From: a plasmid
NCBI RefSeq assembly: GCF_056746865.1
Contig: NZ_JBWKMP010000005.1
Reading direction: 5' to 3' (one strand)
DNA length: 64,000 bases
Below are positions 6,001 to 15,000 of this stretch, in pieces. The position numbers are program-made. Position 1 is the stretch's first letter, and the number at the start of each line of letters is the position of its first letter.

Positions 6001-9000
6001 CGCCTTTGTAGTAATACCTGACTGCAATATCTGGTCGATCTCGTCGCAATAATCTACTCGATACGCCCTTGAGACTGTTCACCAGGGTGGATATCGCCAA
6101 TTTGGGAGGATAGTTAATTAGCAGGTGAACGTGATCTCGTTCTCCATCCATTTCAACCAGTTCAGCTTCAAAATCAGCACATACACTTGAAAAGTAAGTG
6201 CGTAGTTTTTCTATTGCGTCATGGTCAAAAATCTGGCGTCGGTACTTGGTAACAAAGACCAGGTGAACGTGCATCAGGAAGACACAGTGCCTTCCACGTC
6301 GGATATCGGTTTCTTTTTTCATAGGCCAAAGTATAATTTGGCATATGAAACGACTACAAGCTTTCAAATTCCAGTTAAGACCAAATGGAAAACAGGAGCG
6401 TGAAATGAGGCGCTTCGCGGGCGCATGTCGTTTCGTTTTCAATCGTGCTCTGGCGCTTCAGAATGAGAATCATGAGGCCGGGAACAAATATATTTCTTAT
6501 GCAAAGATGACTTCCTGGCTGGTTGAATGGAAAAATGCTACTGAAACGCAATGGCTTAAAGATTCTCCCTCACAGCCATTGCAGCAGTCACTGAAAGACC
6601 TTGAGCGAGCCTACAAAAATTTCTTTCAGAAGCGTGCCGCTTTTCCCCGATTCAAAAAGCGGGGACAGCATGATGCATTCCGCTATCCGCAGGGTGTTAA
6701 GCTCGATCAGGAAAACAGCCGTATTTTTCTGCCGAAACTGGGCTGGATGCGCTACCGGAACAGCCGTCAGGTCACGGGTGTTGTGAAAAATGTCACTGTC
6801 AGCCAGTCCTGCGGTAAGTGGTACATCAGTATTCAGACAGAAAGTGAAGTATCAACTCCGGTTCACCCTTCAGCATTAATGGTCGGGCTGGATGCTGGCG
6901 TGGCTAAACTCGCCACGCTGTCAGATGGCACGGTCTTTGAGCCTGTAAACAGTTTTCATAAAAACCAGAAGAAGCTGGCGAGACTTCAGCGCCAGTTAAG
7001 CCGCAAGGTTAAATTCAGCAACAACTGGCAGAAGCAGAAACGCAAAATACAGCGACTGCATTCCCGTATCGCAAATATCCGCAGGGACTACCTTCACAAA
7101 GTCACAACGACCATCAGCAAAAACCACGCAATGATAGTCATTGAGGATTTGAAGGTCAGCAACATGTCAAAGTCAGCCTCGGGTACGGTCAGCCAGCCGG
7201 GGCGCAATGTCCGGGCAAAATCAGGTTTAAACCGTTCGATACTGGATCAGGGCTGGTATGAAATGCGCCGTCAGCTTGAGTACAAGCAGCTCTGGTGTGG
7301 CGGTCAGGTGCTTGCTGTTCCGCCAGCGTACACAAGCCAGCGTTGCGCGTGCTGTGGTCATACAGCGAAAGAAAATCGCCTGTCACAAAGTCAATTCAGA
7401 TGCCAGGTATGTGGATATACAGCGAACGCCGATGTAAACGGCGCTCGTAACATTTTAGCGGCGGGGCACGCCGTTCTTGCCTGTGGAGGGATGGTGCAGT
7501 CAGGCCGCCCGTTGAAGCAGGAACCCACCGAAATGATTCAGGCGACAGCCTGAACGTAGCAGGAATCCACGTCCTTCAGGGCGTGGAGGATGTCAAAGGG
7601 TAACTTTTCAGGATGCGATTTTGCCTGGTGTGTTGTTGCGCCCGTAGCTCGCTGACGCTCACACGCGCAGTACAGCGCCCCGCCCTGCTGCAATGCACCA
7701 GGACGGCGTAAACTCGCTGGCGCTCGCGCTAACTGCGGCATTCTGCGGCGCAAATCAGCATGATCATGGCCTGTCAGTCCGTTGGGCTTTGCAGGGTGAA
7801 GGGATGACCCTGTGCATCCTGGTATGTTCGTCAGCGGCTGCGCCGCGCTTCGGGGCGATGTGGCCCCGCTGCTCCCTGGTATTTCCTTTCGCCCCTTCTA
7901 TCCGCTGACGCGGATTAAGAAATGAGCAAATCATCAAGTAAATTGCTGTTTTCAGGCAATAAATCTTGATAATACATCTAAATAGATGTATTATTATTTC
8001 ATCGAAAGGGGATTGGCTCCTTTCCTTCTTAAGTCCAAACGGACAGGAGATTTAAAATGAAAACATTGACTTTTAATAACGGCACTGTTTCTGTTGGCGA
8101 TGTGTTTGTATCTTCCTGGGGATATGAGCAAACGAACGTTAATTTCTACCAGGTTATTTCTGTTCATGGCAAAAAAACCGTAACTGTTCAGGAGATTCGC
8201 GCTTCAGTTCATCGGACTCATTCAATGAGCGGATATAAGACCCCATTACTTAATGATTTCTGTGGTGAGCCATTAAAACGGCGAGTGCGTGATTATTACA
8301 GTACGCCAGCAATTGAAATTGAGGAATTCGAAACAGCATATAAAGGATCACCGGAAGAAAAACACGAGTTCACATCATACTACTAAGAAAATAGTTGCAG
8401 GGGGTATCCCCTGCAACCATGTTAAAAATGTTAATAGTAGTAGTATTTACCCAGGGGGTTTTAGTATGAATGATGGGGTAAAACTCCGTCCTTCAGGGCG
8501 TGGAGAATGCCGGGCTAATGCAGCAATGTAATGTTGCGCCCGTAGCTCGCTGACGCTCACACACGCAGTACAGCGCCGCGCTTCGGGGCGATGTGGCCCC
8601 GCTGCTCCCTGGTATTTTCTTTCGCCCCTTCTATCCGCTGACGCGGATTAAGAAACGAGCAAATCATCAAGTAAATTGCTGTTTTCAGGAAATAAATCTT
8701 GATAATACATCTAAATAGATGTATTATTGTTTCATCGAAAGGGGATTGGCTCCTTTCCTTCTTAAGTCCAAACGGACAGGAGATTTAAAATGAATATCCA
8801 GGAAGCATTAAACGTTTTTGGATTATCCGGCGAATTAACTGAAAAAGATATCAAAGCAGCATACAGAAAAGCCGCTTTAAAATATCATCCAGATCGTAAC
8901 CCGTTAGGGGCTGAACTGATGAAAGCGGTAAATGCAGCTTTTGATGTCTTGATGGCAAATATTGATAAAATAAATCAGTTCCAGAGCGCTGATGAACATG

Positions 9001-12000: not shown

Positions 12001-15000
12001 CAGCTCTGGTGTGGCGGTCAGGTGCTTGCTGTTCCGCCAGCGTACACAAGCCAGCGTTGCGCGTGCTGTGGTCATACAGCGAAAGAAAATCGCCTGTCAC
12101 AAAGTCAATTCAGATGCCAGGTATGTGGATATACAGCGAACGCCGATGTAAACGGCGCTCGTAACATTTTAGCGGCGGGGCACGCCGTTCTTGCCTGTGG
12201 AGGGATGGTGCAGTCAGGCCGCCCGTTGAAGCAGGAACCCACCGAAATGATTCAGGCGACAGCCTGAACGTAGCAGGAATCCACGTCCTTCAGGGCGTGG
12301 AGGATGTCAAATAATTGCGATTTTGCCTGGTGTGTTGTTGCGCCCGTAGCTCGCTGACGCTCACACGCGCAGTACAGCGCCCCGCCCTGCTGCAATGCAC
12401 CAGGACGGCGTGAACTCGCTGGCGCTCGCGCTAACTGCGGCATTCTGCGGCGCAAATCAGCATGATCATAGCCTGTTGGTCTGTTCTGGCTTTGCAGGGC
12501 GAAGGGATGGCCCTGTGCATCCTGGTATGTTCGTCAGCGGCTGCGCCGCGCTTCGGGGCGATGTGGCCCCGCTGCTCCCTGGTATTTTCTTTCGCCCCTT
12601 CTATCCGCTGGCGCGGATAAAAAAATGAGCAAACCATCAAATAACTTGCTGTTTTCAGGCAACAAATCTTGATAATACATCTAAATAGATGTATTATTGT
12701 TTCATCGAAAGGGGATTGGCTCCTTTCCTTCTTAAGTCCAAACGGACAGGAGATTTAAAATGAAATTCACTTCAACCACGAATCATGTTTTCACATTCGA
12801 ACGAGTAACGCTTTGCACGATTGTTCTTATTCATAAGGATACGGGACAACAGTATGTTGTCATATTTACGGATAACAATAAAATTCGTGACTATAAGACC
12901 GGAATTGTTTCTCAGTTTGGTGAACTTAAGCAGAGTGATATTGATTTAATTCTTTTCTATCGGGACGAATATGAAAAATATTTTGACTCGTTAAATAATG
13001 GCGAGGAGTATTTGAGTTTTAAAGAATATATCGGATGTATAAGGGGAAAATAAATTATGAAAGGTGTGATCAGGTTGCTGGAACAACCTGATCACGTTAT
13101 CGACAATCAAAACTGAATGAGGTTTTTAAATGTCAACGCGGCAGATCGTACAGCTTGCTGACTCCCTTGTCAAAGGCTGGGAAACCAGAATTCCGGCAAT
13201 GACGTGCACGGAGTGGGATCAATTCCGGTGGTGGTTAAACTACCTGCAAGGGTATGAAATGTTTTAAATAACCGGGATAAATTCATATATGGGGAGAGTG
13301 TCATGCTCTCCCTTTCTTATTGTGTAAGCGAGTTGTATTACATATTTAGCTTTACGTTGTAAAGATTTTATTCGTTGTCTTTACAGTGTGGTGTGTTTTC
13401 CGGCGGTTGCGCTGCGCTTAGGGGTATGTGGCTTCGCTGCTCCCTGGTATTTTCTTTCACCCTCCTATTTGTCCGATGACTTTTGACAACAACGCTATTT
13501 GTAACTATAATTAGTTGCATGTTGGCAAGGGATGGGATTATAGCGTATGGGGAAAGCAGATAAGCTACTGGCAAAATTTTTAAACAGTAAAAAAACGTTT
13601 GAATGGGATGAACTCGTTGTTTTGTTTTCTTCTCTAGGATATGTCAAAAAGGAAATGCAGGGATCAAGAGTGCGATTTTTCAATGCTGAAATTAATCACA
13701 CAATATTAATGCATCGCCCACATCCAGAAAGTTATATTAAAGGTGGAACGCTGAAAGCTATTAAACAGAACTTGAAAGAGGCTGGGGTTTTATGAAACAT
13801 TTAAAATATAAAGGATATTTAGGTACGGTTGAGCCGGATTTTGAAAATAATATCCTGTATGGAAAGCTGGCATTTATTCGTGATCTGGTGACTTATGAGG
13901 CAGAAACATTGGCTGACCTGGAACGGGAATTTAAAACATCGGTTGATTTGTATTTACAGTCCTGTGTGGAGGACGGAAAGGAGCCTGACACGCCCTTTAA
14001 AGGTGTGTTTAACGTCAGGCTTGATCCAGAGCTGCATCGTCGGGTCGCTGAAATGGCGATGGAAGAAGATTTGTCGCTGAATGCCTTTGTCAATAAGGCA
14101 CTGGAAAAAGAAGTCAGTCATCATCGCGCAGGGGCTTAATCGCCCCTTTTTGTTGCTCGCAGGCGTTGATGTTTCTTGGTATTACGGTGTAGTGTGTTGT
14201 ATTTACAAACAATGCTTTACGGTGTATTACGATGCATACTCTTTAATTGCTTGCAATCTCTTTTCACGTTCGTTGCTTTGTTCAGCTTTTTTCAATTCAC
14301 TGAATATGTACTCTTCATCTTTACCCGTGAGTTTTGAACCGGAGAGCAAGCGATTAACAACTTTACGTCGAATTGCAGGGTAATCTTTGGTTTTATCGAG
14401 TATGGACAATATGCGGTCACTACTAAGAATCTGGCCTTTCCCTGATTCCACATAATGTAGAAAAAATGCGATTGCGGACACGCCCAAAAGCACTGTAAGG
14501 ACGGCTACACCATCAAGACGAAACTTTGATATAAAGGAATACGCGACCACTCCAATAATTGCTAAGCAGAGACATAAATAAATTAAGAGGTTTTTGTTGC
14601 GTTGTTTTTTTTGTGCGCGATCATGATCATCTATGATTGCCAGTATCTTTTCTGGAGTTGCTTGAGCCATTTTTTTTCCTTATCAGGGAGACGGAGTGTT
14701 CAATCATCTGGCTTTACAATGTAAAGCTGTGTTTGTCTTTACGGTGTAAATAATGAGATGTGCAGTTAAAAGTGTCAATCAGGTATCATATAGTAAAACA
14801 CTATATGATTTTTCTGTAATAGGCTTAAAAAATTCTCGCTTACATTGTAAAGGTCTTTGTGTCTTTACAGTGCACCACGTTGTAAATCACTGCCTTCTGT
14901 GGAGATAATCATGTTTTTTTCTGTTGGTGTCGAAACACCGAAAGATGATCAGACTGCATACGGCATCACTGTTCCGGCTTTTGATTGTTTTGGTTTTGGA

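Follow-up and report, generated by a model that had tools for sequence, protein, structure and literature searches.

Upstream repeats in the leading region of an IncI2 plasmid are related to the IncN conserved upstream repeats and may form a repressor-controlled regulon

We analyzed a 64,000-nt stretch of plasmid DNA (the window; NCBI RefSeq assembly GCF_056746865.1, contig NZ_JBWKMP010000005.1), in which one sequence module recurs upstream of unrelated small genes. The host replicon is an IncI2 resistance plasmid, and the modules, A to D, sit in its predicted leading region. We found that a module consists of two separable parts, a GC-rich element of ~285 nt (63% GC) and a sigma-70 promoter with its 5′ untranslated region (UTR). 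Judged by its sequence, the GC-rich element is a previously unrecognised homologue of the conserved upstream (CUP) repeats of the IncN plasmids R46 and pKM101. The promoter carries a dyad. On balance, it seems probable that the modules are composite expression units, that the dyad is the operator of a small protein, orf80, and that A, B and C form one autoregulated regulon with zygotic induction. The feature would thus be a relative of the IncN CUP regulon: the structured core is common to both, and repressor and operator differ. This mechanism is plausible.

A repeat search and a MAFFT alignment placed the copies at 7614-8056 (A), 8529-8789 (B) and 12316-12759 (C), with a truncated core (D) at 13390-13470, all on the plus strand. 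An earlier note on this DNA had reported the repeats at these places, and only small boundary corrections were needed. The homology begins at 7614, 8529 and 12316; 7598-7613 is unique flank, and 8471-8528, a hairpin resembling the right end of an insertion sequence (IS) plus a spacer, lies outside the homology of B. A and C are 96% identical over 444 nt, and A and B are 98% identical across the 3′ 217 nt and 96% across a 50-nt 5′ block. B is an internal-deletion derivative that has lost the middle ~165 nt, with its junction (..CAGCGCC|GCGCTTCGG..) at a GCGCC microhomology. D retains ~60-80 nt from the 3′ part of the GC-rich element (88% identity over 42 nt), and its equivalent in an IS-free IncI2 sister plasmid, L001 (L numbers denote comparison loci), confirmed it as a degenerate core (85% over 61 nt, E=2.8e-12). 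The GC-rich element is at 7636-7919 in A (terminal hairpin ATCCGC-TGAC-GCGGAT at 7900-7915), at 12338-12622 in full length in C (terminal hairpin 12603-12618) and at 8529-8648 in truncated form in B (terminal hairpin 8633-8648); D, at 13390-13470, is a remnant of its 3′ third. The GC content of this part is 62.8%, compared with 43.1% for the window. The 5′UTR and the context of ribosome-binding site and ATG are identical among A, B and C, and the first open reading frames (ORFs) behind them have no mutual similarity (BLASTP, E<1). The note's picture of a GC-rich core, a promoter overlapping a palindrome, a hairpin and an identical start context before unrelated ORFs therefore held for all three copies.

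The two parts of the module also occur apart. The GC-rich element is found without this type of promoter in Pectobacterium, in D of the window and in two copies of L065. Conversely, the promoter and UTR stand without the element at L004 982, L005 4022, L006 4755 and 7042, and L044 1009. Where both are present, their order, orientation and spacing are constant. In related plasmids the same modules precede different cargo, such as RelE/ParE pairs or further small ORFs, and the module therefore behaves as a portable cassette head.

The kinship with the IncN repeats was revealed by a divergent copy of the module. In blastn searches, the copy in L005 had collinear matches in R46, on the gene strand, with E values of 7e-7 and 9e-6. 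Compared with R46 directly, the IncI2 copy gave a non-significant E value of 0.8, and the link to CUP runs through intermediates. The R46 targets were the known CUP copies upstream of ccgAI, ardA, ccgD and ardB and a fifth copy near a resolvase gene (self-blast). Two alignments (A3 and A4), which took in the IncX4, IncX6, L005, L006, Erwinia, Pectobacterium, R46 and IncR copies, show shared blocks over the full length of the element, namely CCCGTA.., CGCAGTAC(A/G)GCGCC, ACTGCG, GGCTT.GCAGGG and CGCCT(T/C)CCATGCCCTGACGGGCATAAAA. The last block, which is the end of the element, is near-identical in R46, IncR, L050 and L049. The element has been conserved between IncN and IncI2 at 70-75% identity while the adjoining promoter was replaced; the promoter-proximal 130 nt are not alignable between the two groups. 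The resemblance to the IncN repeats to which the earlier note had pointed is thus due to true homology, in the GC-rich part. In the searchable literature, CUP is discussed for IncN only, and no paper links it to IncI2 or IncX. A protein-coding GC-rich element was also considered and rejected, as a 1-nt indel separates IncI2 from IncX4.

In PLSDB, ~1,190 records match the module, namely IncI2 plasmids (3-5 copies each), IncX4, IncX6 and unnamed MOBP plasmids, and CUP-like sequence is present in ~2,000 records. In IncX4 plasmids there are two copies (83% identity) next to taxA-taxC; as in the window, they precede the J-domain operon and the orf97 homologue. A scan of species-representative genomes added contigs of Erwinia, Pectobacterium, Pantoea and Photorhabdus. 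When genome and metagenome contigs were scanned with core strings, most matches were chance ones in GC-rich genomes; the true homologues were ~10 genome loci and ~13 metagenome loci, the latter mostly IncN-like or IncI2-like and thus of little further diversity.

The secondary structure of the GC-rich element has also been conserved. We defined 28 base pairs, which make up a long interrupted stem (CGCAGT..AGCGC / GCGCT..ACTGCG), the CGCC/GGCG stem and variable hairpin that it encloses, a small internal hairpin and the terminal hairpin. Over these pairs, 97.2% of cells are Watson-Crick or wobble, compared with 28-42% after sliding of the partners. Changes on both sides were seen in six pairs (26 cells) and one-sided changes in none. 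The covariation score was 0.187 versus 0.046 in shuffles, and none of 500 shuffles reached it. The terminal hairpin, for example, reads ATCCGC/GCGGAT, ATTCCC/GGGAAT, ATGCCC/GGGCAT or ATGCGC/GCGCAT, depending on the lineage. That the element sits 5′ of the -35, with no obvious transcription, suggests that it has its role as folded DNA. Compared with shuffles, both strands gave the better folds (z = -4.3, -4.3 and -4.0), and they did so equally well, as any palindrome-rich DNA would.

Downstream of this element, 46-51 nt past the terminal hairpin, A, B and C have the same near-consensus promoter, TTGATA-17-TATTAT, at 7966-7994, 8699-8727 and 12669-12697, respectively. In A, the -35 TTGATA (7966-7971) and the -10 TATTAT (7989-7994) are separated by a 17-nt spacer. 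With 10 of 12 consensus positions matched, this spacer length, C-A at the inferred start and an A-rich tract upstream in most lineages, the sequence fits a strong conventional sigma-70 promoter. A 26-bp palindrome, the putative operator, overlaps it at 7969-7994 in A (core 7972-7991), 8702-8727 in B and 12672-12697 in C. In the 64 kb, its 20-mer ATACATCTAAATAGATGTAT has exactly three occurrences (0.01 expected), all of them at these promoters. Transcription from A would begin at A8001 (the C-A step, 7 nt past the -10). The predicted 5′UTR of A (8001-8056) includes a 5′-terminal hairpin 1 (8004-8024), a hairpin 2 (8033-8044) and a Shine-Dalgarno sequence, AGGAG (8045-8049), which hairpin 2 leaves free. 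Promoter and 5′UTR together span 8699-8789 in B and 12669-12759 in C. The UTR hairpins are conserved across lineages, with G-U states on the sense strand and compensatory changes. Hairpin 2 was compared by eye, because MAFFT puts the lineages in different registers and pair counting failed. Two further candidates, an extended -10 motif (TG out of register) and a divergent promoter from the palindrome (no minus-strand -35), were rejected.

The dyad has diversified among the lineages while its position and symmetry were kept. At least six different dyads are found at the same promoter position. They are ATACATCTA-AA-TAGATGTAT in the IncI2 plasmid of the window, ATACGAC-N6-GTCGTAT in IncX4 of the mcr-1 type, TAGGTCAT-AA-ATGACCTA in IncX6, ATAGGTCAG-NN-CTGACCTAT in L007, L044 and L187-L189, ATACCGCA-N4-TGCGGTAT in L005 and ATACCTCA-ATA-TGAGGTAT in L050. 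Three of the seven dyad pairs scored have changed on both sides, and the unpaired cells come mainly from the rows of L006 (CP057326.1).

The last gene of operon B, orf80 (10199-10441), encodes an 80-aa protein with an XRE-type helix-turn-helix (HTH). It resembles the DNA-binding domain of MqsA (PDB 3fmy, E=3e-5) and Aca3 (E=2e-3). MqsA and Aca3 bind palindromes and repress their own synthesis. Homologues of orf80 close the corresponding operons in every dyad-bearing lineage. L006 has homologues of the J-domain gene, orf180 and orf84 of operon B and none of orf80, and its four promoters are without a comparable dyad. The recognition-helix region also varies with the half-site: TAGGTCA is found with ..(S/T)WRRKE in IncX6 and L044/L187/L188/L189, and ATAC-type sites are found with ..TWQKKE, ..SWQKKE and ..NWQRKE. 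This pairing crosses plasmid backbones. The IncI2 plasmid L189 and the IncX4-typed plasmids L187 and L188 have TAGGTCA with WRRKE, and other IncI2 and IncX4 plasmids have ATACATC with STWQKKE and ATACGAC with RTWQKKE. Such co-variation is the pattern expected of cognate operator-repressor pairs, and a small repressor of the orf80 type probably binds the dyad. Because A, B and C share one putative operator sequence, the co-regulated set proposed in the earlier note is supported.

Three side observations concern these regulators. In L006, a different 32-bp palindrome (ATATATAGTGTGTAATATTACACAATATATAT) overlaps the -35 at 4060-4095 and 6258-6293, which suggests that a different regulator has taken over there. 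On the IncX4 plasmid of E. coli NC101 (L186), a second, more distant paralogue of orf80 ends another small-ORF operon (3663-3881), which hints at two parallel operator/repressor circuits on one plasmid. In the window, orf84 and orf80 (9948-10441) overlap in toxin-first order, as mqsRA does. The two genes might at the same time be a toxin-antitoxin module of the MqsRA type; for orf84, neither similarity to a toxin nor a homologue of known function was detected.

The genes behind the modules occupy the plus strand and are directed at the origin of transfer (oriT) and the nikAB genes. To the right of the modules are a nikA-like gene (18507-18848) and then the gene of a 1437-aa relaxase (18845-23158). 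The oriT must sit in the repeat-rich intergenic region at 18.2-18.5 kb; no recognisable nick consensus was found in 18120-18520. A relaxase operon is generally the last to enter the recipient, and the minus strand would therefore be the transferred strand and the template of the module-driven genes. The leading regions of F, R46, IncX4 and IncX6 have the same geometry, in agreement with the strand assignment of the earlier note.

We infer promoter activity, repressor binding and timing from these features and propose the following order of events. A dimeric XRE/MqsA-like orf80 protein would bind the 26-bp dyad over the spacer and the -10, which would unite operons A, B and C in a single autoregulated regulon. 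On transfer, the plasmid would arrive in a recipient that lacks the repressor. Once the region became double-stranded, the three promoters would fire; orf80 would then accumulate and shut them off, giving zygotic induction with an overshoot. Zygotic induction has been proposed for the CUP/ArdK regulon of pKM101 (PMC6289460, PMC5371602, PMC6294495).

The weakest step of this model concerns the GC-rich element. Most likely it would act as folded single-stranded DNA (ssDNA) of the transferred strand and would prime or pace complementary-strand synthesis just upstream of the promoter. This synthesis has the same direction as transcription, so it would meet the element just before the promoter. With a priming signal at the element, promoter and gene would become double-stranded first; a roadblock would have the opposite effect and make them double-stranded later. 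A roadblock to complementary-strand synthesis has been shown for an F ssDNA promoter (bioRxiv 10.64898/2026.01.09.698686). We raise, with considerable reserve, the broader possibility that the CUP core represents a hitherto unrecognised type of structured ssDNA signal, widespread in the conjugative leading regions of IncN, IncX1/4/6, IncI2, IncR and Erwinia/Pectobacterium/Pantoea plasmids. It would fold in the transferred strand upstream of establishment promoters and prime or stall synthesis, and each lineage would have added its own repressor and operator.

Several points weigh against the operator-repressor model and the place of the element in it. As palindromes can fold into hairpins too, ssDNA might be where the dyad acts. 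The HTH gene, the dyad and the promoters are all found within ~5 kb and could be exchanged as a block, so that their co-variation is not independent evidence. A-C cells, which are G-T wobbles on the minus (transferred) strand, outnumber G-T cells by 6:0 in 13 sequences and 8:1 in 42, which represent only ~5 versus 1 independent events; this is a hint that the transferred strand is the folding strand. Alifold run per strand is biased to its own strand, and the strand-neutral count was 8 versus 7. B persists with a truncated element, and promoters free of the element occur in L004, L005 and L006; the GC-rich element is therefore not required for the promoter as such. One R46 CUP copy (32854-33089) is oppositely oriented. 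Lastly, the nick site and the direction of transfer are inferred from gene order.

Two other explanations were considered. In the first, the GC-rich element would have no role as a folded strand and would persist as recombination homology that shuffles promoter-gene cassettes between and within plasmids. The cargo does vary between related plasmids (RelE/ParE pairs, other small ORFs, operons with and without the J-domain gene), and inversion between CUP copies has been reported in IncN2 (PMC5371602). The birth of copy B by deletion at the GCGCC microhomology and the presence of one operator/HTH type on both IncI2 and IncX4 backbones are also consistent with it. Homology needs no base-pairing, yet six pairs of the element keep Watson-Crick pairing by two-sided changes and 97% of cells are paired. 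Moreover, the element was kept from IncN to IncI2 while the promoter beside it was replaced, and all copies that stand before a gene have the same orientation relative to it. We regard this explanation as unlikely.

In the second, the whole module would be an Frpo-like ssDNA promoter. The folded minus strand would be transcribed before the complementary strand is made, transcription would stop on conversion to double-stranded DNA (dsDNA), and the palindrome would be a structural hairpin. The orientation of the genes fits, and so does the folding of both strands better than shuffles. In the minimum-free-energy fold of the minus strand, the palindrome pairs the -10 with bases beside the -35 and so rebuilds a duplex -10, and an adjacent hairpin (7932-7970) pairs the -35. 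The upstream GC-rich hairpin block is also similar in composition to the Frpo region of F, and new classes of ssDNA promoter without homology to Frpo have recently been found (PMC12672017). However, the module has no similarity to the F leading region, the home of Frpo1/2 and of class 2 and class 3 homologues (PMC12672017): a comparison with F 50-68 kb gave nothing better than E=0.2 at word size 7 and nothing at E<=1e-3 at word size 9. Six CUP-core strings of 7-9 nt in both orientations, and longer strings, were absent from the supplementary list of Frpo candidates in PMC11541004. The repeat search found no inverted partner of the promoter stretch with which the -35 and -10 could be rebuilt within a single stem with a loop beyond the -35; the hexamers are in two adjacent hairpins and not 17 bp apart in one helix. 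In addition, the promoter is of the ordinary near-consensus dsDNA type, L006 retains its promoter without the dyad, and the dyad tracks a DNA-binding protein. In the folding check suggested in the earlier note, the modules folded better than shuffles, the two strands were alike and the hexamers fell in separate hairpins. The note's Frpo-type promoter reading was not borne out, as both the sequence similarity and the single-stem -35/-10 geometry are lacking. The module is not an Frpo promoter, and it is improbable that it works as a whole in an Frpo-like way.

A further reading, the refuting case named in the earlier note, would derive the modules from the adjacent IS200/IS605 elements, as PATE- or MITE-like remnants or by-products with no regulatory role. 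It is hardly credible: IS right ends do lie against A and C, and B has a solo right-end-like hairpin beside it, but IS-free IncI2 plasmids hold all modules intact with clean TTAC empty sites, which already excludes it, the IncX4, IncX6 and IncN copies have no nearby IS, and module and IS have no sequence in common except that hairpin.

The model of an orf80-controlled regulon can be compared with three known systems. As in the IncN CUP regulon, small, mutually unrelated leading-region operons, all directed at oriT, are preceded by several repeats of >400 bp, each repeat has a promoter and a repressor site (here predicted from sequence), and the GC-rich part is homologous and shares its hairpins. 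A block in the opposite orientation by oriT is also common to both, with a ParA/TraL-type ATPase here where IncN has stbB; no protein homology was found between this minus-strand block and R46 StbABC, and the parallel is one of layout only. In contrast to IncN, the window has no homologue of ArdK, ArdR, ArdA/B, Ccg or Stb (tblastn E<=0.1), and the promoter-proximal 130 nt are unrelated. A putative XRE/MqsA-like HTH protein and a spacer dyad stand in place of an ArdK site, and the cargo is a J-domain protein, small unknown proteins and hicAB.

The second comparison is with the Frpo/ssi sequences, reportedly described as ssDNA promoters by Masai and Arai in 1997. These promoters, of classes 1-3, are known from F, ColIb-P9 and pESBL (PMC9849209; PMC12672017). 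Like the modules, they are GC-rich, hairpin-forming sequences of ~300 nt in the leading region, are present in multiple copies per plasmid, and lie directly upstream of genes templated by the transferred strand. They differ in that the modules have no sequence similarity to them and do not rebuild the -35 and -10 in one stem, and that the structured part here stands before a conventional dsDNA promoter whose dyad is of the protein type. The third comparison is with acr-aca and MqsA autoregulation, whose logic the dyad/HTH pattern appears to mirror. Common to both are a strong promoter with an inverted repeat over the -35/-10 region (8702-8727 at B), a small HTH gene that is last in its operon and matches MqsA and Aca3, and, for mqsRA, the overlap of orf84 and orf80 in toxin-first order. 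Unlike acr-aca, no known anti-defence gene was identified in the operons (Pfam, NCBIfam, PDB, PADLOC), and one repressor type would serve at least three promoters; unlike in MqsRA, no similarity to a toxin was detected for orf84.

Colistin resistance by mcr-1 travels mainly on IncI2 and IncX4 plasmids, whose leading regions are annotated as "hypothetical". If our reading is true, an early-establishment regulon of these plasmids and its probable master repressor have been identified. The IncN CUP repeats were described in 1997, and the function of these >400-bp repeats "has not been studied in detail" (PMC6294495); they would gain a conserved structured core. The dyads and HTH proteins would provide a natural set of orthogonal operator/repressor pairs. 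It would also become possible to test directly whether plasmids free of Frpo rely on some other ssDNA signal. The cargo proteins, namely the J-domain protein, orf109, orf180, orf97 and orf45, are priority candidates for anti-defence or host takeover, and the J-domain protein could recruit host DnaK.

The cargo genes are all on the plus strand. Module A precedes orf109 (8057-8386), which is followed by a hairpin with a 13-bp stem (8391-8420). Operon B (8790-10441) is made up of the J-domain gene (8790-9305), orf180 (9409-9951), orf84 (9948-10202) and orf80, of which the last three overlap by ATGA; its synteny is kept in IncX4, IncX6, L005 and L006. The J domain is N-terminal (Pfam DnaJ, E=4e-11). 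Operon C (12760-13313) holds orf97 (12760-13053), orf45 (13130-13267) and a terminator-like hairpin (13291-13313), and homologues of its genes lie behind the second IncX4 module. D is followed by a consensus promoter, TTGACA-17-TATAAT (13483-13511, plus strand), and then by hicA (13547-13795) and hicB (13792-14139). No Pfam, NCBIfam, PADLOC or PDB match was found for orf109, orf180, orf84, orf97 or orf45, and PHROG 37844, a family of unknown function, is the only match of orf109. PADLOC matched none of the cargo, and its library covers defence and not anti-defence proteins. As the earlier note had stated, the products are uncharacterised, except for the J domain and the HTH. Between orf97 and orf45 there is also a palindrome, GTGATCAGGTTG-N6-CAACCTGATCAC, with 12-bp arms (13064-13093). 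It is kept in IncX4 (L003, ~4237-4270) with one arm position changed on both sides.

The 5.9-kb stretch with the modules is 100% identical to the E. coli plasmid NZ_AP018355.1. Without the 1.7-kb IS copies, it is ~99% identical in dozens of plasmids of 59-66 kb (IncI2, MOBP, MPF_T). Two identical IS200/IS605 copies lie outside the modules on the plus strand, the first at 5850-7597 (tnpA 5906-6442 on the minus strand, tnpB 6345-7553), inserted 3′ of TTAC 5846-5849, and the second at 10564-12311, inserted 3′ of TTAC 10560-10563. Their right ends abut A (~7597) and C (~12311). Most IncI2 plasmids are without these two copies, and L001 has clean empty sites (..GTTAC|AGGGTAAC.. and ..CTTTAC|ATAATTGCG..) with the modules intact, which shows that the IS were inserted 3′ of TTAC. 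This is a known target type of the IS200/IS605 family.

An Rfam scan of 5.6-18.6 kb assigned no family to the modules; the only matches were weak HgcC ones (TnpB omega-RNA-like) over the IS right ends, at 7486-7609 and 12200-12323. Guide segments of such RNAs would read into the module flanks. The solo right-end-like hairpin (GTCCTTCAGGGCGTGGA) at 8478-8504 abuts the truncated B, and L007 has the same junction, which suggests a trace of an older IS insertion or excision at that spot. We also found eleven CTTTACAnTGTAAAG palindromes in 5010-15296, compared with 0.38 expected, often paired 25 bp apart (for example at 5733, 5803, 10477, 10502, 13350, 14712, 14737, 14838, 15257 and 15282). They are limited to the maintenance/leading region, lie directly upstream of A, C and D, and contain the TTAC targets that the IS used. 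They probably serve as sites for a further regulator or for a ParA-like partition system.

Near oriT, an array of short repeats of the TGTGGGT type (18202-18346) lies between a minus-strand gene block and the nikA-like gene and is presumably part of oriT or of relaxosome binding. The minus-strand block (14227-18138) diverges from oriT and includes the gene of the ParA/TraL-like ATPase (16967-17719). It also contains a 138-nt direct repeat (15672-15809 and 16114-16251, 88% identity), from which two neighbouring ORFs of the minus strand (15470-15817 and 15798-16277) have their paralogous N-termini (95% over 46 aa).

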